IMG/VR virus record: IMGVR_UViG_3300032332_000934
Span: 1 to 64,000 of that record
Source: a virus
Lineage: Duplodnaviria; Caudoviricetes
DNA: 64,000 nt
Direction: 5' to 3' (one strand)
Shown: piece by piece, positions 14,279 through 44,203 of the stretch
Numbering within the stretch: the first letter of the stretch is position 1
How the letters are laid out: each line of letters begins with the position of its first letter
The notes under the pieces: model-generated
Told to the model about the DNA's origin: nothing
The model's input: only the letters and a program-made list of their open reading frames with translations
The model's database searches: none
Position numbers and translations under genes: made by a program

Positions 14279-14861
14279 TATATACCTTCTTTCTGTTTGT
14301 TTTTAATGATTTATCTGGGGATATTAGATTTTAGGAAAGCCCCCCTACCCCCCAAATTTTTTCTTTTTGGAAAGATAGAGAAAGCAGTTCCTGGAACACA
14401 TATTCACAGATATTATCTGGTACATATTGAGTTTCAGGGTAAGCCCCCCACAAAGCAAACTAAGTGTAGCATTTAAAATTTATCGAAGTCAAGACATTGT
14501 GCTAATTTTTTTTACATGTGTTTCGCAAAGGTTGTATTTTATACCCTTGTTGTTGATCATACTTGTATATGCGTATTTATCGCAAAATGAACATGTCATA
14601 GCTCTATTGTACCACCGCTTTATATTTCAGTCGACTGCTTTTTAGGATTTAAGAAAATGTTAATATATTTTTTACATGTATGATACACACCATGGACAAA
14701 ACGGACATTTTGGATAGTGCGCCCATAATTCTTTGAGCCTTGAGCGTGAGTGTGAGCCTTATCACAAAGATTTATTTGCAACACGCCCGAGATGTGCCTC
14801 AATTTGTCAGTCCCCCATGCTATGCTTAAGGTATAACAAACAAACGAAAGGTACTCATCTA

Positions 14862-15035
14862 ATGAATACACTAAATAGAATAAAGGCAGAGCAAGACCTT
14901 GCTCGCCACATAGCGCATGAAAAGGCTATGGCTAAGGCTCCTCACATCAGAGAGAGCGTTCAGGCGTATCGTAACGCCACCCCTGAGCAACTGGCTCAGG
15001 TAGAGGCACTACGCAAGCGAGTGTATGGCTTCTAA
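14862..15035 (+). CDS. Early hypothetical protein
   Basis: Promoter and AACGAAAGG RBS; ATG at 14862. Confidence 0.7.
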   Translation: MNTLNRIKAEQDLARHIAHEKAMAKAPHIRESVQAYRNATPEQLAQVEALRKRVYGF

Positions 15036-15138
15036 GGTGTGACACAACTCACACCCCACAGGGTGCGTGTCGGCTTGATAATGTCAGCCCAATAGGCTAC
15101 AATTCCATTATAACCAACTAACGAAAGAAGAACAGTAA

Positions 15139-15288
15139 ATGACAATCACATACACAATCTGGGACGGCTCACAATTCCTCGGATTTCAAACCGCTAATAG
15201 CGTAGATGAGATGACTAAGACAGTTAAAGATTTACAAAAGATTTCTAAAAATGTAATAGCACACTTGCGAAAGGTAGAAACTAACTAA
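15139..15288 (+). CDS. Early hypothetical protein (49 aa)
   Basis: Manual translation MTITYTIWDGSQFLG...; TAATG-coupled to the next ORF. Confidence 0.65.
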   Translation: MTITYTIWDGSQFLGFQTANSVDEMTKTVKDLQKISKNVIAHLRKVETN

Positions 15289-15401
15289 TGACACTAGATG
15301 AATACAAACAAATGGTGGAGGCGCAACGCCTCGCCTCTCTAGCCATAGCACTAGAGGCACTTACTAAATCAGAGACTATTGCTAAGGAGATGAATAAGTA
15401 A
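15288..15401 (+). CDS. Early hypothetical protein (37 aa)
   Basis: TAATG-coupled on both sides. Confidence 0.55.
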   Translation: MTLDEYKQMVEAQRLASLAIALEALTKSETIAKEMNK

Positions 15402-15583
15402 TGTCATACGCATACTCATACGAGAATAACAGCGTATCTAAATGGGATACTATCCAAGAAGATGTCGCAGACGCATACACATACCTTGATGAGGTAGATG
15501 AGGAACAACCTCCACTAGATGAGTTTAATGATGAAGATACAGACGAACTAGCAAAACTATACGCACTATCATGGGAAAACTAA
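15401..15583 (+). CDS. Highly acidic small protein (possible DNA mimic or host-factor inhibitor)
   Basis: D/E-rich 60-aa protein; AAGGAG RBS. Confidence 0.6.
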   Translation: MSYAYSYENNSVSKWDTIQEDVADAYTYLDEVDEEQPPLDEFNDEDTDELAKLYALSWEN

Positions 15584-15908
15584 TGAATAGACTACTAACT
15601 ACCCTAGTACAGATAGCCCTTCTAGTACCCGCCCTATACATGGGGCGCATGATGTGGCGTGAGATCGTAGCGGATTACCAAGAGTGGGCTAAATCACACT
15701 AGCCTAACGGCGTGTCGACTTGACATTGTCAAGCTGGCCCGCAAAAGAGCGGGGTTATCCACAGGCTTACGGGCATCTGTGGAAAACCCCTAGATTTATG
15801 TGAGATTTATCACATGACCTGAGCGTCTCACATTTTGGAATTACTCGCTAGTAAGTAGCCAAATGTCAGCCCCTTAGTGTACAATTCCTACTATAACGAA
15901 AAAGAAAG

Positions 15909-16094
15909 GTGGTCACCATGACTACACTAAACACACTATGCAAGGCGCATGAGCCTCTTGTTTCCGCTATCTCCGAAATTGGAGATGAACAATTTACCCT
16001 ATGCATGATTTGCGATAGCAACATTGAGCGTTATTACTACGATAGCGACCCTGAGCAATTCCCTACATGGACAGATTGGTATGTGACTAAATGA
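15909..16094 (+). CDS. Early hypothetical protein (C/H Zn-binding-like)
   Basis: ORF track, promoter and RBS. Confidence 0.65.
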   Translation: MVTMTTLNTLCKAHEPLVSAISEIGDEQFTLCMICDSNIERYYYDSDPEQFPTWTDWYVTK

Positions 16095-16255
16095 GCACTT
16101 TTGTTCCGATTAAATCCGTATGTGGTGCGGTATCTACCACAATCGACATGTATGACTATGAATTAAACCCTCATGGTGTTATTTGTTGCGATAATTGCGA
16201 AAGCATTTTGTTATGCCGTAAGGCGTGGGATTTTCTATACAAGGGAGTTAAGTAA

Positions 16256-16453
16256 ATGGAAAAAACACAATTCGAAAAAGATTTAGAAATAAAAGAAAGT
16301 TTTATAGATTTACTTAATGATGTTTATCCTGATGTAAAGATTGGGTATTCAACTTTTACCGCCGCCGAGATTTTAGAATGTTGCGACCCAATCGCTTTTT
16401 CAATCGGTTTAATTGAACATGAAGATTATTTAGCAGAAATGGAAAATGAATAA
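16256..16453 (+). CDS. Early hypothetical protein
   Basis: ORF track; GGGAG RBS. Confidence 0.7.
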   Translation: MEKTQFEKDLEIKESFIDLLNDVYPDVKIGYSTFTAAEILECCDPIAFSIGLIEHEDYLAEMENE

Positions 16454-16779
16454 TGGATTTTTTTGGATTTGAAAAAGCAATTGAAATTGATCATCTTACC
16501 GATGAGCAAATCTTAAAGCTTGAAGAAATTTTTAAAGATTTCGAATAAGCAACGGTGTGTCGGCTTGACAAAAGCTGATGCGCCCGCAAAAGAGCGGGGT
16601 TATCCACAGGCTTACGGGACTTATCCACAACCCCTGGAATTTTCCGACACGCCCGAGATTTTGTGATTTTTATCACACGGCTTGAGCGTCTCAAAATGTG
16701 GAATTACTTGCCAGTAATGTGAAAATGTCAGTGCGTTAGGCTATAATTGCTACTATCAACAAACGAAAGGTGACAACTA

Positions 16780-16980
16780 ATGTCAGCAAATGTCTATTCC
16801 GTAGAAAACCTACTTGTAGGAAAAATCTATCACTCTCGCTCAGTAAATGGCGAAATTATTTCAGCCGAAAAAAATAATGATGTCTGGTATGCAAATGCAG
16901 ACACTTACAAGGTAGAAATTTCTCCACTTAATTTTGGAAAAAATACTTATCGCTATTTAGCAGTTAAGACAGGTGACTAA
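16780..16980 (+). CDS. Early hypothetical protein
   Basis: Promoter and AACGAAAGGTG RBS. Confidence 0.7.
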   Translation: MSANVYSVENLLVGKIYHSRSVNGEIISAEKNNDVWYANADTYKVEISPLNFGKNTYRYLAVKTGD

Positions 16981-17290
16981 ATGATTAAAGATTATTTAGA
17001 TGAAACCGAATTCTATTTTATTAAAGATGAACAACATTTTTGTTGTGATGAAAGCCAATTTGTTTATGTGTGCAAGACACACGGCGAACAAATGGATTGC
17101 TATTATTGCGGATTTAACTATGATGAGAATTGCGAGGAACAACACTAATGATTAACTCAGTATTAACAATAGAGTGCCAAGATTGCTTAGGTCACGGAGT
17201 AATTTTTTTTGGTAATGATAATGATTTCGATTGCGAACCTTGCGATTGTGTAAATGACGGCTCACTATTTTGGAACGGAGAAAATAACTA

Positions 17291-17497
17291 ATGTATAAAC
17301 TAACTTGCGCTTATGACGGCAACGCACCACATTGGACAGTGGAATACGAAAACGAATACGGGGCTTGGGAAAACTTTTTCCTATTCACCGATTGGGGATT
17401 TGCTGACGAATACTCAACAGTTAATCTTTATACACCAGCAGGCAAATGCCATACAAAAGTTTTTTATCGTGCAGGACGAAAGGTCGTAATTAAATAA
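17291..17497 (+). CDS. Hypothetical protein with TDWGFA motif
   Basis: Homologous to the middle part of 42875..43387. Confidence 0.75.
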   Translation: MYKLTCAYDGNAPHWTVEYENEYGAWENFFLFTDWGFADEYSTVNLYTPAGKCHTKVFYRAGRKVVIK

Positions 17498-17660
17498 TGG
17501 AACACTACGAATTCAATGCTTTCATAACTGTTGAGGCAGAGTCTTATGATGAAGCCATAGATGTATTTCAGTTTCAGTTAAAGTACGGAATAAATAAAGA
17601 CAATGTTTATGTCGCAGACATAAATCAACTAACTAATAACGAAAGTGTGGAAGTATAAAA

Positions 17661-17852
17661 ATGATGACTCGTAAAGATTATGTTGCTGTTGCAGAAATTC
17701 TAAATTTCGCAAGCGATAAAATTCACCCAGCACTATTTTCTAAAATGGTAAATGATTTTGCAGTTATGTTCGCAAAAGATAATGACCGATTTGATGTAAA
17801 TCGTTTTCATGAAGCGAGTGGCTATCATGTCACAAAACTCACTTCGAGATAA
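17661..17852 (+). CDS. Hypothetical protein with DNxRFDxxRF motif
   Basis: Homologous to the C-terminus of 42875..43387. Confidence 0.75.
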   Translation: MMTRKDYVAVAEILNFASDKIHPALFSKMVNDFAVMFAKDNDRFDVNRFHEASGYHVTKLTSR

Positions 17853-18135
17853 AGTAAAACGAATTCAGGAATTGCGCCGCAGTAATGCGGCGCAACCTGT
17901 TCGTAATAAAAAGAAATATTTTAGAAAGATCAAACACAAAAATAAAAATGCAGAGTAGTGCATAGCTATGCAGCCCGCAATACTGCGGGGTTATCCACAG
18001 GCTTACGTGGGTTATCCACAACCCCCTGGATTTTGTGATTAATCTCACAAAAGCTGCGACACGCCGTAAATGGATTAGGTAATGTCAGTGGGATAGGCTA
18101 TAATACTCTTATACCAACAACGAAAGGCAATAAAA

Positions 18136-18339
18136 ATGATAGTAGAACATAATCTAAAATTCGTTACAGAGTTTAAGGACGGCCACCCAGTTACTCAGCA
18201 AGTGCAAATGCTTGATGAAGGCACTCGTGTATTTATGCTAGAGTCAATGCTAAAAGATTTAGTCGGTAGCCGACTACAACCTATCCTTGATGAAATAAAT
18301 GCAGGTGGGTCTTACGCAATTCTTAAGGTGGCAGAATAA
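18136..18339 (+). CDS. Early hypothetical protein
   Basis: Promoter and RBS. Confidence 0.7.
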   Translation: MIVEHNLKFVTEFKDGHPVTQQVQMLDEGTRVFMLESMLKDLVGSRLQPILDEINAGGSYAILKVAE

Positions 18340-18605
18340 TGGGATACAATACAGCGTTAGATTTATCTAATGAATTAGATTTAGAGGTAGCACTAGGTTA
18401 TCACTTACAAGGTAATCATTACCCACCCGTTCCGCTTTCTATGGTACAACCTTGTATTGAGGCTATTGACGCTTACTATGATGAGGATTATAATAAGTTG
18501 ATCGAAATGCCTGAAGGCGTATCTTATAAAGGTGACTCTCATGCGCCAGCGTGGGCTATTATCGAACAGCACCACTTAGACGCTTGGCTACCTGAAAGTG
18601 ACTAA
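18339..18605 (+). CDS. Conserved phage hypothetical protein (HLQGNHYPPVP)
   Basis: ORF track; coupled start. Confidence 0.7.
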   Translation: MGYNTALDLSNELDLEVALGYHLQGNHYPPVPLSMVQPCIEAIDAYYDEDYNKLIEMPEGVSYKGDSHAPAWAIIEQHHLDAWLPESD

Positions 18606-18701
18606 GGTCACACAATAACATTCTCAAATAGTGAGATAGGGCTAGACTAATGTCAGACCCCAATGCTATACTACAACCCTAACAAAGAAAAGAGGCAACA
18701 A

Positions 18702-18884
18702 ATGACAGTAAATGGATACACTTACAAGGTTGGCGATTTATTCACCACCCTAAAGTCAAAAAAGACAGGTGTGATTAAGGAAATCCACCCACAAACATCT
18801 GGCTCGGTGCGTGTGCTACTAGAAATGCCAACGAAAGAAACTCGTTGGACTTCGGTATCTGCTCAAACCTTACTAGGCGTATAA
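18702..18884 (+). CDS. Small SH3/KOW-like beta protein
   Basis: YKVGD...TGVIKEI...VRVLL...RWT pattern; AGAGG RBS. Confidence 0.55.
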   Translation: MTVNGYTYKVGDLFTTLKSKKTGVIKEIHPQTSGSVRVLLEMPTKETRWTSVSAQTLLGV

Positions 18885-18970
18885 TCTAAAAACAGGGGGG
18901 TCGCAGAAATGTCAGACCCTCCTGCTATAATTATTTAATCAAACCAACAAACAACGAAAGAAGGAAACAA

Positions 18971-19393
18971 ATGGCTAGAGGAAAAGCAATCTCAGTTAAA
19001 ATCGCAACACCAAAGGTAATCAAGGCACTAGAAACTGCACTAGCAAAGTTAGAAGCAGATTACACTTCACAAGAAGCAAACGAAGCAAAGTATGAAAAGT
19101 TACGCAAGGCTTGGCAAAAAGAGGTTAGCGATTTCGCAGTTGCTAACATCAAGAAGGCTGAGAACTTCCGCACTAACTATCGTTCTTGGAACAACACACT
19201 CAACATTGACTACGATTTGACAGTATCCGAAAAGGAAATGCCAAAAGAGCCTGAGAAGGACTTTGTAACAATGCACCGCCACTCATACTTAGAGCAGAAG
19301 CAGGAAATCGAAAATGCAATCCGTATTCTGAAAATGACAGATGAGGAAACAGTAAATACTTCAACCTACAATGCGGTTGCACAGTATCTCTAA
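18971..19393 (+). CDS. Early coiled-coil hypothetical protein
   Basis: Strong promoter and RBS. Confidence 0.8.
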   Translation: MARGKAISVKIATPKVIKALETALAKLEADYTSQEANEAKYEKLRKAWQKEVSDFAVANIKKAENFRTNYRSWNNTLNIDYDLTVSEKEMPKEPEKDFVTMHRHSYLEQKQEIENAIRILKMTDEETVNTSTYNAVAQYL

Positions 19394-19427
19394 ATAAAAT
19401 CGTTCTCGCATAACGATAAATTGCGAA

Positions 19428-19454
19428 CAACCTGAGTAAGTTGCTAAACTGCTC
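19428..19454 (+). ncRNA. Putative H-type pseudoknot element, copy 1
   Basis: CAAC-CTGAGTAA-GTTG-CTAAAC-TGCTC; covaries with copy 2. Confidence 0.55.
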
Positions 19455-19489
19455 TCCCTTCGGGGACAACTACTAACAAAGGTAACAAA

Positions 19490-19744
19490 ATGAAAAATCG
19501 TTTCAGAGTAGAAATCTATGATGCAAACAAGAGTAATGATTTAACAATCTATTCAGAGCAAGGTGTTGATAAGGAATACTTAACTGAATTAGCATTCTCT
19601 AATAGAGGAAATTTCTTGGGTGATGTACGTGCTTATGTCTATGATACATTGAAGAAGACTAAGACTACCGCTCTTTATCTTCCCGCCGAGGTTATTAACT
19701 TTAACCGTAAGAATCAATTGACTAGGGATGAGTTGGGTCTATAG
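19490..19744 (+). CDS. Early hypothetical protein
   Basis: ORF track; AAAGG RBS. Confidence 0.7.
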   Translation: MKNRFRVEIYDANKSNDLTIYSEQGVDKEYLTELAFSNRGNFLGDVRAYVYDTLKKTKTTALYLPAEVINFNRKNQLTRDELGL

Positions 19745-19942
19745 AGATCTAACACTGGCTGCAGATATGCAGCTGGCCCGTATATCTGAGGGGTTATCCA
19801 CAGGGTTACGACTGCCTGTGGATATCCCTGGATTTTTGTGATAATGATCACATCTCATAATTCGGACATATTGTGTTTAATCCTAGACAATGTCAGTGGC
19901 AGATGTTATACTTATGACTAATCAAACGAAAGGTAAAAAAAT

Positions 19943-20950
19943 ATGGCTCACAATCTCGAAATGGAAAACGGCGAAGTTGCTTTCGCTCTCCGTGGCGCAC
20001 CTGCATGGCACAACCTTGCAAATCGCATCTTTACACAAGATGAAGATGTTACAACTCAAATGATGTTAGATGAGGCAAAACTTTCCAACTGGAATGTTCG
20101 TCTGTCTCCACTGACTGACCACATCTCAGATACATGGAACGATGTATCTAACGCATCTCTTGTCATTCGTGACAACCCATTCAACAAGGGCACTGATGTT
20201 CTTGCAACTGTTGGAAAGCGTTACAAGCCAGTGCAGAATGAAGAATTATTCGCATTCGCAGATGCAATTCATGATGCAAACGCAGATTGCCGTTGGGAAT
20301 CTGCTGGCTCATTGCGTAGTGGTAAGGTTGTATTCGGTACAGTGGATATTCCTCGCACAATGGTTCTTGACCCACAAGGCGCTAACGATGAAACTAAACT
20401 CTATTTAATTGTATGGACATCACACGATGGCTCAGTAGCGGTTCAAGCAGCCGTTACACCTGTTCGTGTTGTATGCCAAAACACATTGAACCTTGCAATG
20501 CGTAACGCTAAGCAATCATTCAAGATTCGTCACACGCAATCTGTTGAAGGTCGAATTCAAGTTGCTCGTGAAACTCTTGGGCTTGCTCTTGGGTACTTTG
20601 ATGAATTCGAGAAAGAAGCGCAAGCGCTTTATTCTCAGTCAATTACTGATGCTGAATTCTCTAAGTTGATTCAGACAATTTATCCTAAGCCTGCTGACGA
20701 TGCAGCAAAAGTTGCGCTAACAAAGTGGGAGAACAAAGTCGTTCTGCTTGATTCTTTGTATCATAACTCACCAACTAACGCTAATATCAAGGGAACAAAG
20801 TGGGGTGCATTTAATGCACTAACTGAGCGCCTAGATTATTATCGTTCAGGGCGTGGAAATTCTGAAACACTTATGGCTGGTGCATCAGGGTTCGACCCAA
20901 TTCTAACTGCTGAGAAAAACAAAATCAAGAAATTGGTTTCTGCTTTCTAA
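19943..20950 (+). CDS. DUF932 family (phage/plasmid LGT-type) protein
   Basis: MAHNLE...AWH.L, YKPVQNEE.F, SHDGS and TPVRVVCQNTL motifs. Confidence 0.85.
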   Translation: MAHNLEMENGEVAFALRGAPAWHNLANRIFTQDEDVTTQMMLDEAKLSNWNVRLSPLTDHISDTWNDVSNASLVIRDNPFNKGTDVLATVGKRYKPVQNEELFAFADAIHDANADCRWESAGSLRSGKVVFGTVDIPRTMVLDPQGANDETKLYLIVWTSHDGSVAVQAAVTPVRVVCQNTLNLAMRNAKQSFKIRHTQSVEGRIQVARETLGLALGYFDEFEKEAQALYSQSITDAEFSKLIQTIYPKPADDAAKVALTKWENKVVLLDSLYHNSPTNANIKGTKWGAFNALTERLDYYRSGRGNSETLMAGASGFDPILTAEKNKIKKLVSAF

Positions 20951-20957
20951 ATAAATA

Positions 20958-20984
20958 ATTCCTGAGCATGAATAAAAACTGCTC
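20958..20984 (+). ncRNA. Putative H-type pseudoknot element, copy 2
   Basis: ATTC-CTGAGCAT-GAAT-AAAAAC-TGCTC; spacing identical to copy 1. Confidence 0.55.
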
Positions 20985-20996
20985 ACATTTTTTCTT

Positions 20997-21070
20997 GGTC
21001 CATTAGCTCAGTTGGTTAGAGCGCTACCCTGTCACGGTAGAGGTCGACAGTTCAAGTCTGTTATGGATCG
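20997..21070 (+). tRNA. tRNA-Asp(GUC)
   Basis: Acceptor GGTCCAT/ATGGATC-G; anticodon arm CTACC-CTGTCAC-GGTAG. Confidence 0.9.
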
Positions 21071-21174
21071 CTAAGTGCCCTCAATGCTAAGGGGGCAAAA
21101 AATGTGTTACGACTCACATAAAATTTCCCTGGAATCTATTGATAATGTCAGTGGGTTCGTGTATAATTCTCTTC

Positions 21175-21837
21175 ATGACCAACGAACTAGTATCAAGTAA
21201 GTATACCTTTGTCTGTGACCCAGACGAATGCGATTGTCTGATAGAACTAACATCATCTGATGGATTTGGCTTTCCTTCAGGTGTGACAGAACTCACATGC
21301 CCGTGTGGCCGAAAGACCACATTAGTGTCAGTGGAGCATGCTACAATTACACCAACAACAACGAAAGAGGAAAAAATGGAAGAAACAACTGTAGGAACTA
21401 TTAACGACCTGCTTACACCTTACAACCCTGATATGTTAGTAACATACAAAAAGATTAGTGGTTATTCTGATACAGAATTCCTTACTGATAAGGTTCGCAA
21501 CATTGAATGGGAACTCCACAACGCTAGAACTAATTCTAAAGCGGTATCTGCAATTCAGAATAAGATTAGTTTAGTTAAGGATATTATTACTGAGGCATAT
21601 GCTGATTCAGATGACCAAGATACATTGCGCGAGATTGCCGAAGCACTTGAGATTGAACTTACACGTGAAGTTGAATGGTCTGCAACAATTGAGGTTAGCG
21701 GAACATTAACAATTGATTTGCTTGAAAGCACAGTTGATGATGTCGAACAAGAAATCTACGACAATCTTTATGTTGATTCACAAAACGGTCAGATTGAAAT
21801 TGTTGACACCGAAGTATGTAATGTGCGTGAGAACTAA
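21175..21837 (+). CDS. Hypothetical protein with Cys-rich N-terminal extension; nested in-frame start at 21376
   Basis: Leaderless ATG 7 nt after the -10 hexamer; a second promoter and RBS lie inside the ORF. Confidence 0.7.
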   Translation: MTNELVSSKYTFVCDPDECDCLIELTSSDGFGFPSGVTELTCPCGRKTTLVSVEHATITPTTTKEEKMEETTVGTINDLLTPYNPDMLVTYKKISGYSDTEFLTDKVRNIEWELHNARTNSKAVSAIQNKISLVKDIITEAYADSDDQDTLREIAEALEIELTREVEWSATIEVSGTLTIDLLESTVDDVEQEIYDNLYVDSQNGQIEIVDTEVCNVREN

Positions 21838-22040
21838 TGTACTTTGAACTTACCGCTCCTGATATGCTCTCTATGCAGAGAGCGTATTGGGATGCAGAGA
21901 TAACGGGACTTGACCCACAAGCAATGTCTGCGTTGACATTCAACATCGGAACTGGTAGTATTGAGAAAGTAAGTAGGCTTAGAGATAAGTACAACTTAAC
22001 TGAATCTTATGTATCAGACCACGAAACCACAGGTTATTAA
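21837..22040 (+). CDS. Hypothetical protein
   Basis: TAATG coupling. Confidence 0.65.
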   Translation: MYFELTAPDMLSMQRAYWDAEITGLDPQAMSALTFNIGTGSIEKVSRLRDKYNLTESYVSDHETTGY

Positions 22041-22192
22041 GGAGAGATTATGTCAGAGTATAAAGATGGTTGGGCAGATGGTTACAAGTTTGCTCGTGAT
22101 GAAATCATGGAAAAGTTATCAGAGATTGATATTAATGATATTGATTCTTGGATTCTTGACCGTCTATCTGAGATGATCGAAGGTGGCAAACT

Positions 22193-22384
22193 GTGATGGC
22201 TGAATGGCTTAAGTGTGACCAGTGTGCAGCTCAGGCTATGTGGGAAGCAAAAAAAGATAACGCATCTCTTTTCTTTTGCGGTCACCATAAAAATAAACAG
22301 GGCGAGTCTCTTGTGGACTGGGCCCATGAAATGGTACAATTACTCAAGTACGAAGAAAATCAACTACTAACGAAAGCAGAATAA
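22193..22384 (+). CDS. Zn-finger-like protein (CDQC...FCGHH)
   Basis: Actinobacterial/actinophage-type CDxC..FCxHH motif. Confidence 0.65.
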   Translation: MMAEWLKCDQCAAQAMWEAKKDNASLFFCGHHKNKQGESLVDWAHEMVQLLKYEENQLLTKAE

Positions 22385-22385
22385 A

Positions 22386-22751
22386 ATGGGCGATAGAGCA
22401 AACTTTGGATTCAGAGATTCCAAGGAGAACGTAGTATTTCTATATGGGCACTGGGCTGGACATAACATGCTAGCCAAGTTGGCCAATGCTGTGCAGGCTG
22501 CAGAGCCACGCTGGCAGGATGAATCATATGCAACACGCATTGCTATATCTAATCTAATTGGAGAAGACTGGACTCAGACAACAGGCTGGGGAATTTATGT
22601 TAACCAATTAGGGGACAACGAACACAAGGTACCTGTAATTGACTGGACCAACGAAACGTTTACATTGTACGAAGAGGACCTGAGCACGGTAGTGTTTACA
22701 TCATCCTTGGCGTCATTTGTGGACAAATACAGTCGACTAGTTATGGTATAA
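22386..22751 (+). CDS. Conserved actinophage hypothetical protein (MGDRAN...LYGHWAG)
   Basis: ORF track and RBS. Confidence 0.75.
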   Translation: MGDRANFGFRDSKENVVFLYGHWAGHNMLAKLANAVQAAEPRWQDESYATRIAISNLIGEDWTQTTGWGIYVNQLGDNEHKVPVIDWTNETFTLYEEDLSTVVFTSSLASFVDKYSRLVMV

Positions 22752-22876
22752 TTAGACCTAGGACATTAATCCTGGTTTTAATATAGAAATGAAATGGTGC
22801 GTCTATTTAGTCTTTATGGCCAGGCGCTAAGTAAAGCGGTTTATTTCTTTCGTTGGAAATCAGCAGCCATATTCAT

Positions 22877-22908
22877 ACCCCCCAGCTTTTAGCTGGGGGT
22901 TTCTTTTT
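22877..22908 (+). terminator. Intrinsic terminator
   Basis: CCCCCAGC-tttta-GCTGGGGG followed by TTTCTTTTT. Confidence 0.8.
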
Positions 22909-23084
22909 GCCCGCAAAGACTTGAGGGTAGCATATTGTCTTTACGACTGTCAAATACATTTCCCAGGATTTGGTGTGATGTTGATCACATTCCACATAAA
23001 ATGTGGCGGGGATCACAAAGCTTTTCTATTCCATTTGTCAGTGGTCCATTGTATAATTGGAACATATCAACGAAAGGATATAAA

Positions 23085-23822
23085 ATGCCAAATTGGGTAT
23101 ATAACGGATTAACTATTGAAGGTAATCCTGAGCAAGTAAAATCTCTAATCAAGCAGATGAATAAGCCATTTGTTTATTCTATTACTGCAGTAGGTGATTT
23201 GTCATATGATGTTAAGCAGACTAAGTATGTTAATCCTATCTTTGCTTTTCATAATATCTATAACTATAGAGATGCTGGTATTACTGATGAGGTATATCAT
23301 GGACAACCTCCTCGTTCCACCGACCAAGATTGGTTTAAGTTTGATACCAATGACTGGTATAACTTTAATGTCCGTGAGTGGGGCACCAAATGGGATGTAG
23401 CCGTAGCCGAGGATAATAAGTATCCTGATACAACTATTGAGGAAGCAGAAAATGGCGAGAACTATGTAGTTCACTATAACTTTAATACTGCTTGGTCTCG
23501 TCCAATGAATGCTTTAATTAAACTATCATCTCAATATCCAACATTACTATTTACTTTATCATATGAAGAAGAAACAGGCTGGGGTGGGGAATGTGAATTC
23601 CTTCGTGGAGAAGTTATCTCAGAATCAGAATACGAGAACCAATGCCGTGACTGTGATGCCACAGATTGCATGGAGTATTGTGAGGAAGAAGACTGTGGAG
23701 AAATTTGTAATGTATGCCATTGGCTAGGAGAGGCTGACCTAGAGGCTGTGGCTAAATGTCAGACCCATAAGATATACTTAGACACTAAAGTACCCGAATA
23801 TAGAAAGGTGGGAACCAAATGA
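23085..23822 (+). CDS. DUF1281/YubB-like ferredoxin-fold protein with Cys-rich tail
   Basis: MPNWVYNGLTI, WYNFNVREWGTKWD and FNTAWS.P motifs; start corrected to ATG at 23085. Confidence 0.8.
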   Translation: MPNWVYNGLTIEGNPEQVKSLIKQMNKPFVYSITAVGDLSYDVKQTKYVNPIFAFHNIYNYRDAGITDEVYHGQPPRSTDQDWFKFDTNDWYNFNVREWGTKWDVAVAEDNKYPDTTIEEAENGENYVVHYNFNTAWSRPMNALIKLSSQYPTLLFTLSYEEETGWGGECEFLRGEVISESEYENQCRDCDATDCMEYCEEEDCGEICNVCHWLGEADLEAVAKCQTHKIYLDTKVPEYRKVGTK

Positions 23823-24049
23823 GTTTTCTAGAGAATGAAAACCAAATGGTAATAGACGCAACATATCAAGAGATTGGAGAAATGCTAGTCGAAGACTGGG
23901 TTAACTCCAATTTAGATGAAGGCCAACTGTTTGCAGATTATAGATTTGCAGAAATGGCAGATAACAATTACTTAAAGGGTAGATTTAATCAGTTTTATGA
24001 TTTGAAACCAGGTGACCAGTATTATCTAGAATGGGATGAGGAGAAGTAA
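23819..24049 (+). CDS. Acidic hypothetical protein
   Basis: ATGA overlap. Confidence 0.65.
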   Translation: MSFLENENQMVIDATYQEIGEMLVEDWVNSNLDEGQLFADYRFAEMADNNYLKGRFNQFYDLKPGDQYYLEWDEEK

Positions 24050-24211
24050 TGTTAGGTTATGACTTAGAGGATTTAAATATAATGATCGATTCATTAGAAG
24101 AAGTTATTCAGATTGAAGAATCTTCTCAGACCCCTTCAATTTCTGATAGAAATCTAGGCGGACTTAAAACAAGTTTATCGTTCTTACAAGGACTATGGGC
24201 AGAGGGCTATT

Positions 24212-24430
24212 TTGACTAAGTCATCAGCATTCCTAGAATATATGAAGATACATCTAATTAGTCTTAACCAGGACTTAGAGGAATGTATGTATATATGGAG
24301 AACAGATAGAGATAATCATGATAGTTCTAAGATAGATTATTTAAATGGACAAATTGTTGCAACCAGGCATTTATTGTCAGTGGCTACTGATATAATGAAT
24401 AACTCTAACGAAAGGTATAACAATGAATAA
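24212..24430 (+). CDS. Hypothetical protein
   Basis: ORF track; its 3' end contains a TGTCAG promoter. Confidence 0.55.
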   Translation: MTKSSAFLEYMKIHLISLNQDLEECMYIWRTDRDNHDSSKIDYLNGQIVATRHLLSVATDIMNNSNERYNNE

Positions 24431-24695
24431 TGAAGACATTGGGCTCCCGCCCCATTTGCAACGTTTGGTTAATGCAGGTGTTAGTGGATTAGATATAATG
24501 CACGGTGAACTAAAGAATCTAATGCTAATTGCCGAGCAGGAACTAGCAGACGCAATCGAACGGGAAGAAGAATCAGAAGAAGCAATGGACTCTATGGTCC
24601 GTACAGAATGCGAAGGTGCACTAGACACCTTGGTAGCCCTATATGAACTAACATACCAACTCTCATTTGCGATTGGAGCACGTGGTGAAGCCTGA
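24423..24695 (+). CDS. Hypothetical protein
   Basis: Promoter and AACGAAAGG RBS. Confidence 0.7.
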   Translation: MNNEDIGLPPHLQRLVNAGVSGLDIMHGELKNLMLIAEQELADAIEREEESEEAMDSMVRTECEGALDTLVALYELTYQLSFAIGARGEA

Positions 24696-24999
24696 AGATA
24701 AAGATAAACTAAACAAGTGTTTAGAAATTCTAGATGACACAGACTTAGGTCTATCATTAGTTTGGCTATGGACATGGTCGACAATTAATAATATACTAGA
24801 GGATGAGACCTATAAGGCTAACGCTAGCAAAGACGACATGTGGAATCACCTGTGTGAGGCTGTAGAGGCTGGAATGGGCTTCTCCCTAGAATACGGTGCA
24901 GACCAACATCATGAAGACGTACAAGACTGGATGTTAAGCAGAGACTACATTGTAGACACAATGTTTGAAGAAGAGGAGGACGAAGATGAAGATGAGTGA
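24667..24999 (+). CDS. Acidic-tailed hypothetical protein
   Basis: ORF track; true start probably a GTG near 24685. Confidence 0.65.
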   Translation: MRLEHVVKPEDKDKLNKCLEILDDTDLGLSLVWLWTWSTINNILEDETYKANASKDDMWNHLCEAVEAGMGFSLEYGADQHHEDVQDWMLSRDYIVDTMFEEEEDEDEDE

Positions 25000-25125
25000 C
25001 AAGTATCTAAACGATCAACTTAGTACAGCCCAAAAGCTTTTGTGGGGTGGGTCCGAAACAGAAAACATCGAGGCACATAACATCATTGCTAAACTAATTC
25101 AAGATAAGGTAGAACAGGTGGAACT

Positions 25126-25311
25126 ATGAGAAAAGACTATAAGATTTACGGTGACCGTATGCAGGAGTTTTACGTAACCGTTAGCGCAGAGTCACACGAC
25201 CTTGCGTGGGAAGCAGCCAAGCAAATCCCTGCAGAGGGTTGGACTGAAATCCCAACTGATGACATGATTGACCCATACAACGCAGTAGAAGTAGAACTTA
25301 CAATTAAATAA
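25126..25311 (+). CDS. Hypothetical protein (VxAESxxxA family)
   Basis: ORF track; resembles small ORFs starting near 17497 and at 45050. Confidence 0.6.
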   Translation: MRKDYKIYGDRMQEFYVTVSAESHDLAWEAAKQIPAEGWTEIPTDDMIDPYNAVEVELTIK

Positions 25312-25460
25312 AGATAGGTTGAGCCGTTATGGACAATTCGGACATAACGGTCTTCAATCTAAGGGCACGGGCAAAAATATTGCTTTACGTACCCTATTTA
25401 CAAATCCCCGAAATTCGGATATAATATATATAACAACTCGATCTAGAAAGGATCAAACAA

Positions 25461-25613
25461 ATGACATCAACACCAACAACAACTCGTGAATATCTAAAGG
25501 CCCAGGGAATTTCTGTGGGCAAGCGTGGCCGCTTCTCAGCTGCAGCTCTAGGAGCTATCAGCAAGGCAGCACAATCAGGCGTGGTCTTCTCAGACACAAA
25601 GAACGTCAAGTAA
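25461..25613 (+). CDS. Stand-alone Lsr2-like DNA-binding domain protein (50 aa)
   Basis: Missed by the ORF track. MTSTPTTTREYLKAQGISVGKRGRFSAAALGAI matches the Lsr2 C-terminal RExxxxxGxxVxxRGR AT-hook pattern; GAAAGGA RBS; downstream hairpin. Confidence 0.75.
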   Translation: MTSTPTTTREYLKAQGISVGKRGRFSAAALGAISKAAQSGVVFSDTKNVK

Positions 25614-25623
25614 TAACTAACTG

Positions 25624-25655
25624 TGGGGACCTTCCTCTTCGGAGGCAGGTCCCCC
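25624..25655 (+). terminator. Hairpin with TTCG tetraloop
   Basis: GGGGACCTtCCTC-TTCG-GAGGcAGGTCCCC. Confidence 0.65.
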
Positions 25656-25712
25656 TTCATTTACAAATGTCAGTGCCCAATGGTATAATCAAAACGAAAG
25701 AGGTGGAACTTA

Positions 25713-26057
25713 ATGGCTAAAGCGAACGAATTCAAAGCAGCAGAAAAATTAACAGACTATCTAAATAATGCTAACTTCTCACCTGCCGTAATGGCAAATG
25801 TATTAACAACTGAACATACCTTATACACCCAAGACAGGCTAATGGAACTAGTTAGATATATCATTCAATACAATTCCCTTAGATTAAAGTCAGAATGGGA
25901 TAAAGGATACACATCCGAAGGATTGCTTTTAGCAGATGCGCTCAATGACATCCTCGAAGCAAAATACGGGGCGGTAGATAGAAACCTAACAATAGACTCC
26001 TTGAAAGAAACAAGAGTAAGAGATAGTAAATATATAATGGACTTAGATTCATTCTAA
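25713..26057 (+). CDS. Hypothetical protein, last ORF of the + strand island
   Basis: Promoter and RBS. Confidence 0.75.
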   Translation: MAKANEFKAAEKLTDYLNNANFSPAVMANVLTTEHTLYTQDRLMELVRYIIQYNSLRLKSEWDKGYTSEGLLLADALNDILEAKYGAVDRNLTIDSLKETRVRDSKYIMDLDSF

Positions 26058-26465
26058 GATAACTTCCCCTATGGGGCATATGGCTTTAATTAGCTGTATG
26101 TCCCATTTTTGTATGCCCATCTTATGGGCCAAATTTCTTCTTTACGATCACATATAAAAAACCCTGGAAAATGTATAATAAATCTAATATAATCTGTCAA
26201 AATGTGCATAGAATATCTCATTATATGAGACAAATAATGCAGAATCTGACAGAATTTTTTGCCATATATATGGGCCAAAATTGCTCTTTACGAACAAATA
26301 AAAAAATTTCCTGGAATTTTATATGAAAGCTATTGACAAATATTGGCCAATATGCTTTATATGGGGCCTGTTGACATTACGTCCCATCATATGATATGCT
26401 CAATTACATAGCTATATTCAGATAGTTATAATGATAGTATTTGGATCTAAATTGATAGTATGATT

Positions 26466-43387: not shown

Positions 43388-43685
43388 ATGGTTTTCCTTC
43401 TAACTCGACTCTAACTCCGTAAGATTCAAGAAGCTTCTTTGCCCTTGAAACATAATCAATAACTTTTTCTTTTTCAATTCCATCAAATTGTATAAAGTTA
43501 TCTTCATACAATCTTAATGCTAAAAACTCTGGGTACTGAACAACATCCATAAGTAGGAACATTGGCTTATTCAGCTCTCTTAGTTTATTTTTCATCTCTA
43601 AGTTATAAAAAACTGGTTTGTTTGGCTCACCAGTCCACTGATTCATTCCATATTTAAAATGCTTGTCATCATAAACATTAGACAT
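43380..43685 (-). CDS. Hypothetical protein
   Basis: ORF track, start trimmed. Confidence 0.65.
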   Translation of the reverse strand: MSNVYDDKHFKYGMNQWTGEPNKPVFYNLEMKNKLRELNKPMFLLMDVVQYPEFLALRLYEDNFIQFDGIEKEKVIDYVSRAKKLLESYGVRVELEGKPYG

Positions 43686-43989
43686 TTTGTTTTGCTCTAA
43701 TCTGTTTCCATATGTCTTTTGTCTTATGAACATTTTTCATTTTATCAATTAATCCTGAAGATAAATATACTCCGCCCCAAACACCATATTCATTATTTTC
43801 AATCCCAGATTGGTGGCATATCTTCATAACTGGGCAAGACAGGCAGCATTGATCTATAGCCTTGGCCATATTTATATCAGATTCATATTTGTCAAAAAAT
43901 AGATTGGTGTCCATTCCGCTACATGCAGCAAGGTGCCACCATCTAATTGACTGTTCATCTGAATCTAATTCATTTAAAATATTTGACAT
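43678..43989 (-). CDS. whiB: WhiB-family Fe-S transcription factor
   Basis: W..AAC.G.D...FF...C.SCPV...C......E.GVWGG. Confidence 0.9.
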   Translation of the reverse strand: MSNILNELDSDEQSIRWWHLAACSGMDTNLFFDKYESDINMAKAIDQCCLSCPVMKICHQSGIENNEYGVWGGVYLSSGLIDKMKNVHKTKDIWKQIRAKQNV

Positions 43990-44203
43990 ACTTTGTTGGC
44001 AATACCCAAACTCCATCTTTATTAACAGCAAATTTGCTACTAATGCCCCAATTATTTTTTCTATATTCTCCGTTTACATTAAAAAACCCAGAAGAATTTT
44101 TTTTCCATAGGATAACGTCATAGTTATTCCATCTAATCTCTAAACTATTTGAATTTGCTCTTTTCTTTAAAAGCTCAACACCTGATTCATAAAGACATAT
44201 CAC
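43970..44203 (-). CDS. Hypothetical protein
   Basis: ORF track. Confidence 0.6.
   Translation of the reverse strand: MICLYESGVELLKKRANSNSLEIRWNNYDVILWKKNSSGFFNVNGEYRKNNWGISSKFAVNKDGVWVLPTKYVKYFK

Follow-up and report, generated by a model that had tools for sequence, protein, structure and literature searches.

What might paired binding sites for DnaA, the bacterial replication initiator, be doing between the genes of a phage? The question is raised by the IMG/VR virus record IMGVR_UViG_3300032332_000934, a genome of 114,966 bp with 36% GC that is classed with direct terminal repeats, and whose first 64 kb constitute the stretch of DNA analysed here (the window). Inside a span of 4 kb in this window there are six perfect copies of the DnaA box TTATCCACA, at 15755, 16600, 16621, 17991, 18012 and 19794, all on the + strand, where only 0.89 would be expected in the window (standard deviation 0.95, largest 4); none of 100 shuffles reaches six. 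Two of the six have inverted partners on the - strand, such that there are four pairs in all. The partner of the first box (15778-15786, TTTTCCACA) falls within the consensus TTWTNCACA and that of the last (19817-19825, ATATCCACA) is one mismatch from it. Measured from start to start, the two direct pairs are both spaced at 21 bp and the two inverted pairs both at 23 bp (spacers of 12 or 14 nt), and successive pairs are 845, 1391 and 1803 bp apart. Both the six perfect boxes and this geometry had been described in an earlier note on the sequence, and we find them at the same coordinates. The rest of the genome contains one more perfect box, at 74401 on the - strand, which lies within a metallophosphoesterase gene and is probably a chance match. 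We consider it probable that the pairs are genuine sites for the DnaA of the host, as predicted from their sequence; that they provide a gene-specific control input within a composite cassette, with titration of DnaA as a side effect, is the reading we prefer, and we give it about an even chance of being correct.

Each pair is situated inside a repeated intergenic cassette of about 180 bp, present in four copies. A GC hairpin (GCCCGCAAAAGAGCGGGG) directly follows the stop codon of the upstream gene and is succeeded by box 1, the sequence GGnTTACG, box 2 in either direct or inverted orientation, CCCTGGAATTT, a palindrome, and a promoter of the form TGTCAG-N10-TAnnnT located about 30 nt ahead of a GAAAGG ribosome-binding site; the polarity of box 1 relative to transcription is constant. 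All four copies are on the + strand. Cassette 1 (15737-15885) has its hairpin at 15737-15754, box 1 (TTATCCACA) at 15755-15763, TTACG at 15768-15772, an inverted box 2 (TGTGGAAAA) at 15778-15786, the palindrome TGTGAGATTTATCACA at 15799-15814, TGTCAG at 15864-15869 and the -10 element TACAAT at 15880-15885, with small genes starting from 15919. In cassette 2 (16582-16747) the hairpin is at 16582-16599, box 1 at 16600-16608, TTACG at 16613-16617 and a direct box 2 at 16621-16629, followed by CCCTGGAATTT, a 20-bp insert with the word GACACGCC (16646), the palindrome at 16662-16677, TGTCAG at 16726-16731 and TATAAT at 16742-16747, and genes from 16780. Cassette 3 (17973-18104) is composed of a hairpin at 17973-17990, box 1 at 17991-17999, TTACG at 18004-18008, a direct box 2 at 18012-18020, the palindrome at 18034-18049, GACACGCC at 18058, TGTCAG at 18083-18088 and TATAAT at 18099-18104, with genes from 18136. 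Cassette 4 (19776-19912) contains a hairpin at 19776-19793, box 1 at 19794-19802, TTACG at 19807-19811, an inverted box 2 (TGTGGATAT) at 19817-19825, the palindrome at 19837-19852, a -35-like TAGACA at 19884-19889, TGTCAG at 19891-19896 and TATACT at 19907-19912, and precedes a DUF932 gene (19943-20950). We note that the insert in cassette 2 shifts the DnaA pair two helical turns from the palindrome, that GACACGCC also occurs beside cassette 1 on the - strand (15709), and that a separate palindrome, TTGACATTGTCAA, lies at 15720-15732 immediately ahead of the first hairpin. The sequence TTACG-N17-TGGAAT was considered as a possible promoter across box 2 and rejected, as the A that a -10 element requires at position 2 is missing from TGGAAT.

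The palindrome and the promoter are both confined almost entirely to one part of the genome. Nearly all of the genes are transcribed from the - strand, the exception being a + strand island of small genes (about 14.3-26.3 kb; 14300-26300) that holds all of the cassettes and is presumed from its sequence to be expressed early. The genome contains eight perfect TGTGA-N6-TCACA palindromes, compared with about 0.1 expected from base frequencies, and all eight are in the island (14751-22989, or 14.7-23.0 kb). Similarly, of 15 strict matches to TGTCAG-N10-TAnnnT, 14 are on the + strand of the island at 14.8-25.7 kb (14805-25689), where they take the form (A/T)TGTCAG-N10-TAnnnT with a variable -35 region; the stray match is at 68163. 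The earlier note had each pair followed by a CRP-type site and an early promoter, and at all four pairs there is indeed a perfect palindrome and then a promoter, but both elements need to be renamed: the palindrome is better regarded as a Crp/GlxR-type site, since the host appears to be an actinobacterium (see below), and the promoter is of the PafBC -26/-10 type, not -35/-10. The PafBC motif tGTCgg(N10)tA(N3)T constitutes a -26/-10 promoter used through 'sigma adaptation' in Mycobacterium (PMC8635444), and the phage promoters share its geometry. The dependence on PafBC suggested by this sequence likeness raises the possibility that the early genes of the phage are turned on by a DNA-damage activator of the host.

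The spacing of these elements is also constrained. The gap between box 2 and the palindrome is 11-14 bp, or 31-33 bp where the 20-bp GACACGCC insert is present, and the distance from the centre of the palindrome to the -10 element in related modules peaks at 52, 62, 72-73, 83 and 94 bp, a period of 10-11 bp that is seen with and without boxes. The palindrome therefore resembles an activator site of the kind that is sensitive to helix face, and the DnaA pair moves together with it; one off-phase class apart (57 bp, discussed below), the palindrome has the upstream position and fixed helix face of a class I Crp/GlxR promoter. Known promoters of the PafBC and class I Crp/GlxR kinds thus share with the phage modules the promoter geometry and the placement of palindromes in 10-11-bp steps, respectively; among the PafBC promoters that have been described, we found none that combines an upstream Crp site with a DnaA pair.

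Conservation of the cassette extends over hundreds of lake contigs. The pattern GGGGTTATCCACAGG has matches in at least 120 IMG/VR stretches, and 109 of 164 matches, a number that includes self-matches from four overlapping loci of the query genome, have the palindrome and/or a TGTCAG promoter downstream. A set gathered independently of the boxes, by way of the DUF932 protein (269 relatives, from which 80 loci at 92-98% identity were kept), gives a similar picture, in that the cassette is kept from the hairpin to the promoter, with variation in the gene upstream, in the loop of the hairpin and in the spacer. In this set box 1 is constant except for one TTTTCCACA, and the hairpin stem covaries (CCCGC/GCGGG, CCCTCA/TGAGGG and CCCCC/GGGGG). 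Over all loci there are 363 unique modules of palindrome plus promoter, of which 190 are box-less; direct pairs are present in 82, at exactly 21 bp in 76 of these, and inverted pairs in 77, at exactly 23 bp in 72. Among 163 instances of box 1 and 163 of box 2, changes are restricted to positions 1, 3 and 5, and positions 3 and 5 are the degenerate ones in TTWTNCACA. When the modules are grouped by the downstream gene, the pair is either present or consistently absent according to the group. Paired perfect boxes are also found in five near-complete relatives (92-100% complete), and the genomes G440, G441 and G443 have the same four-pair layout within about 4.2 kb.

Is the conserved element a site in DNA or a structure in RNA? 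In most contigs the second box of the orthologous DUF932 promoter is inverted, and in three (L187, L190 and L202) it is direct; both orientations are represented in at least four downstream-gene groups (56 inverted and 10 direct, 33 direct and 3 inverted, 11/1 and 11/3). Because box 2 switches orientation and only the inverted form folds into a long hairpin, the 9-mer itself appears to be the unit under selection. Such switching at equivalent promoters argues for a protein site over an RNA hairpin, and an asymmetric 9-mer that can be used both ways round, the two forms being offset by 2 bp, fits a monomeric reader. That the words are simply the arms of a terminator-type RNA hairpin followed by a run of U is consequently something we regard as extremely improbable. 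The inverted pairs do fold to a stem of 13-14 bp, followed by UGGAUUUUU, and a scan for terminator-like sequences picks out GGGTTATCCACAACCC plus CCTGGATTTT in cassette 3. The direct pairs, however, have no long stem, the folding z-scores are weak (-0.4 to -2.1), and whereas the arms of a stem could covary, as those of the upstream hairpin do, the 9-mer is fixed. A search of the region against Rfam returned two tRNAs and no other match, and no fold is common to the direct and inverted forms, which does not suggest a structured RNA or riboswitch.

How, then, would a protein at these sites act? In the reading we prefer, the eight 9-mers would bind the DnaA of the host, presumably a low-GC freshwater actinobacterium, the rigid pairs having been built into a portable control cassette between operons that consists of a terminator-type hairpin, the DnaA pair, a Crp/GlxR-type palindrome and a PafBC-type -26/-10 promoter. 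DnaA would be a gene-specific upstream input, working as a co-regulator with the Crp-type activator, as a boundary or roadblock adding to the effect of the hairpin, or in both ways, and four early operons would be tied to the replication-initiation state of the host; titration of DnaA by phage DNA would be an unavoidable side effect. Because the pair is locked to the Crp-type site and to an upstream position, a gene-specific upstream input seems the most likely role, and the existence of promoter groups that keep or consistently lack the pair favours the same conclusion. A roadblock or insulator role is possible too, since along the direction of transcription the hairpin is invariably followed at once by box 1. 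In E. coli, complexes of DnaA with its boxes block RNA polymerase in an orientation-dependent manner.

DnaA is an established transcription factor, acting as an activator or a repressor (PMC8203912). At the autoregulated dnaA promoter and at lambda pR, which DnaA stimulates, boxes near promoters modulate transcription according to the nucleotide state of DnaA (PMC8203912), and modulation of this type would report the initiation potential of the host. The boxes in those cases overlap or are close to the core promoter, whereas here a rigid pair lies about 95-135 bp ahead of the predicted transcription start, with a hairpin immediately before it and a Crp-type site between it and the promoter, in a cassette that a virulent-type phage has in four copies. 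Of the functions that the earlier note had put forward, promoter control is nevertheless the one that fits the sequence best, given the tie of the pair to the CRP-type site, the helical phasing and the gene-group specificity. We found nothing relevant in the literature on DnaA boxes at actinophage early promoters or on PafBC promoters in phages, and no paper on a cassette that combines a DnaA pair with Crp-type and PafBC-type elements.

Several observations weigh against the reading we prefer. The distance of the pair from the inferred transcription start is large for a direct contact with RNA polymerase, and the starts are themselves deduced from the -10 elements. One class of palindrome-to-promoter distances, at 57 bp and with 32 direct-pair modules, falls out of step with the remaining peaks. 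The boxes in the module counts were scored with up to one mismatch, the pattern used to gather a part of the locus set itself includes box 1, and the counts are not independent events, given how closely the contigs are related. Finally, every phage box, in either orientation, has a GGG(G) 5' flank that is missing from the boxes of host origins, and the TTACG and CCTGGA skeleton of the cassette is kept even where there are no boxes.

The last two points bear on whether DnaA is the reader at all. It is conceivable that a phage protein or some other host protein reads GGGGTTATCCACA(G/A), perhaps along with TTACG and CCTGGA, and that the match to DnaA is incidental, and the fact that most early proteins belong to no known family leaves room for such a reader. 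The box-less skeleton, consisting of a hairpin, TTACG(A), about 16 nt and CC(C)TGGAA, occurs at 21078-21135, 22904-22970, 26115-26175 and 26262-26320 (at 21107, 22941, 26142 and about 26289), with two of the copies at the right border of the island. Because the skeleton also exists without boxes, the boxes are a separable add-on to it. The first copy (21078-21167, +) has a hairpin, TTACGACT and CCCTGGAAT and a promoter with TGTCAG at 21146 and TATAAT; the second (22904-23057, +) has a hairpin, TTTACGACT, CCCAGGA, a palindrome at 22974-22989 and TGTCAG at 23036. We nonetheless consider another reader improbable: the 9-mer is an exact high-affinity DnaA box, its variable positions include both of the degenerate positions of the consensus, and its use in both directions fits a monomeric reader such as DnaA domain IV. 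Because the Crp-type and PafBC-type elements of the cassette match the consensus sequences of host regulators, host factors are the economical reading, and searches of the phage for DnaA domain IV, a Crp-type helix-turn-helix and a WYL protein found none.

Which host would supply these factors? The record is, by its gene content, an uncultured actinophage related to the Stanwilliamsviridae, because it encodes a WhiB-family protein (window 43678-44031, - strand; Pfam Whib, 48 bits) and its closest isolates are large Streptomyces phages; the terminase shares 63% identity with its counterpart in Streptomyces phage Gilson, and the DUF932 protein downstream of cassette 4 is about 51% identical to Jay2Jay gp5. 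Five of 401 genomes from the actinobacterial class of an Aquiluna MAG (metagenome-assembled genome, described below) contain a perfect TTATCCACA-N12-TTATCCACA, and the reversed control pattern is found in none. In three of them (G039, G069 and G118), with genomes of 1.5 Mb and about 46% GC at the sampled locus, the 21-bp direct pair is in the dnaA-dnaN spacer, at position 1602-1632, with three additional boxes, CTACTA repeats and a TATATATAAATAT stretch alongside; with these features between dnaA and dnaN, this is therefore oriC. The three spacers contain four perfect TTATCCACA boxes, or five TTWTNCACA boxes (G069, G039), and the chromosomes have only 12-13 perfect boxes in total, six of them around dnaA. 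The host origin and the phage thus share an identical 9-mer and a direct pair at exactly 21 bp, and both in box sequence and in one pair geometry the phage agrees with low-GC streamlined actinobacteria, which we take as the putative hosts; in high-GC actinobacteria the box is TTGTCCACA (PMC4285127). The candidate hosts encode a Crp-family gene and an adjacent pair of PafBC-like WYL genes, and have PafBC-type promoters in a genomic island; perfect TGTGA-N6-TCACA palindromes are absent from G118, G069 and G039 despite their Crp-family gene.

With regard to that island, matches to TGTCAG-N10-TAnnnT lie in or near one region of two of these genomes (L249, G069:C1:476001-496000; L250, G118:C1:461001-481000) that has large helicase- or nuclease-like open reading frames (ORFs) and a DNA methyltransferase-like ORF, and which may be a defence island driven by PafBC-type promoters. 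An attempt at host prediction through the ribonucleotide reductase was of no use, as its matches are phage contigs misbinned into freshwater metagenome-assembled genomes (MAGs) of unrelated phyla. Contigs of the phage family (L207-L231) are found in MAGs labelled Bacteroidia, Saccharibacteria, Brevundimonas, a cyanobacterium and others, and host calls from those bins would therefore be wrong. One of the ribonucleotide reductase matches is to an Aquiluna MAG (G001:C41, L237 3163-3336) in which seven perfect TTATCCACA boxes, including a 21-bp direct pair, lie between the rplI terminator and dnaB; this is a cluster of chromosomal DnaA boxes within a promoter region, and its succession of terminator, boxes and gene resembles the phage cassette. 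We also note a perfect inverted pair with 23 bp from start to start in the N-terminal coding region of a parB gene (L242 1501-1532; G416:C26:8386-8417), with parA and rsmG as neighbours.

The scarcity of boxes in the candidate hosts invites the explanation that the phage pairs are a sponge, soaking up host DnaA as the phage DNA multiplies and so stopping initiation on the host chromosome, with the adjacency to promoters merely inherited as the cassette was duplicated. A 1.5-Mb chromosome with so few perfect sites compares with six perfect and two near-perfect boxes per phage genome, such that a few tens of phage copies would exceed the host sites, and the phage boxes are in the high-affinity paired form; titration of DnaA by chromosomal boxes is moreover an established principle (PMC5835720). 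A sponge would not, however, require pairs to be kept at certain promoter groups and consistently missing at others, nor a fixed or two-turn-shifted gap to the palindrome, nor a constant polarity of box 1. The E. coli datA locus and the box clusters of B. subtilis are likewise high-affinity boxes outside the origin that are able to hold DnaA, but in each of them 4-8 boxes are clustered in one place, over no more than a few hundred bp (datA also needs IHF), whereas the four pairs of the phage stand alone, at intervals of 0.8-1.8 kb, and every one of them is joined to a promoter. The datA-like titration locus suggested by the earlier note, which would be a cluster of 4-5 boxes, is thus not what we see, and we view titration as the primary function as rather unlikely.

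A slightly less probable alternative is that replication starts here, with host DnaA bound at the pairs, or at a single-stranded hairpin formed by the inverted pairs, loading the DnaB-like helicase of the phage. There are analogues in transcription-activated origins and in the 'ABC primosome' hairpins of plasmids, which depend on DnaA. At 65-73 kb the phage has genes for a polymerase, SSB, primase, DnaB-like helicase and UvsX-like recombinase, and no initiator or helicase loader was recognised in the subset of its ORFs that was scanned; the 21-bp direct pair reproduces one from the candidate-host oriC, and cultured relatives have box pairs in non-coding DNA at the border of a terminal repeat. 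The host oriC nevertheless has additional boxes, trio-like CTACTA repeats and the TATATATAAATAT unwinding element, all of which the phage cassettes are without. With AT fractions of 0.55-0.62, compared with 0.64 for the genome, the cassettes are comparatively rich in GC, and their most AT-rich 30-mers (0.67-0.77) are below the median for random windows (0.80), leaving no AT-rich unwinding element; in the approximately 300-350 bp scanned around each cassette there is no DnaA-trio run (three or more TAG/TAA or CTA/TTA triplets). They are therefore not a classical origin, as the earlier note had anticipated. In addition, they are four dispersed copies, each joined to a promoter and about 45 kb from the replisome genes, and the direct pairs cannot form a hairpin with boxes in its stem.

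The closest phage parallel is found in T5-like phages, for which eight paired DnaA boxes have been described in the first-step-transfer, or injection-stop, region (Davison 2020; bioRxiv 10.1101/866236). The likeness extends to a genome of about 110-120 kb, eight paired boxes of consensus type, a location far from the replication genes and conservation across relatives. By analogy, the boxes could hold the first-entering DNA at membrane-bound DnaA, as an injection stop or membrane tether, which is what Davison proposed for the left terminal repeat of T5. The DUF932 gene of Jay2Jay is inside the long terminal repeat of that phage, and the island may therefore be the equivalent of a terminal repeat. 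Even so, we think this explanation very unlikely: the T5 injection stop is itself a proposed model only, and the T5 pairs are 3 nt apart, within large inverted repeats of an untranslated region and not attached to promoters, whereas the phage pairs are 12-14 nt apart (21 or 23 bp from start to start), with one pair per promoter cassette beside a Crp-type site, and the host is actinobacterial.

To our knowledge, DnaA boxes in phage DNA are known from a few cases only, these being the replication control regions of P1 and lambda and the injection-stop model for T5. In the present genome a fixed-geometry DnaA pair is one module of a promoter cassette that consists largely of matches to host-regulator consensus sequences. 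We offer tentatively, and with more doubt than confidence, the broader proposal that this widespread family of lake actinophages uses the host initiator as both sensor and boundary element at its early operons, in which the DnaA pair behind the hairpin would insulate successive early operons and gate them along with the Crp-type activator and PafBC. If so, early expression would integrate replication-initiation state, cyclic AMP and DNA damage, and amplified phage DNA would strip DnaA from a streamlined host with about a dozen perfect boxes. Should DnaA bind, this would offer a clear case of a virulent-type phage that senses the cell-cycle state of its host, with a bearing on how the most abundant freshwater bacteria, in whose chromosomes DnaA sites are very few, become infected.

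The window also contains six tRNA genes (Ile, Asp, Asn, Lys, Arg and Met), and a nucleotide search with the 4.6-kb cassette region against deposited phages gave no match. In the cultured relatives, the terminal repeat of Jay2Jay, when searched for the cassette, was found to have no boxes, palindromes or TGTCAG promoters. Scans of the whole records did reveal an inverted TTATCCACA pair in Jay2Jay at 122001/122023 (122001-122031; 22 bp from start to start), which precedes gene 256 by about 70 bp and is at the border of the right terminal repeat, and three boxes in Gilson inside a repeat-rich non-coding stretch of 1.76 kb (120291-122053). The presence of a similar inverted pair in cultured Streptomyces phages of this family makes the idea testable at the bench. 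We note that the boxes in both of these phages are TTATCCACA and not the Streptomyces-type TTGTCCACA.

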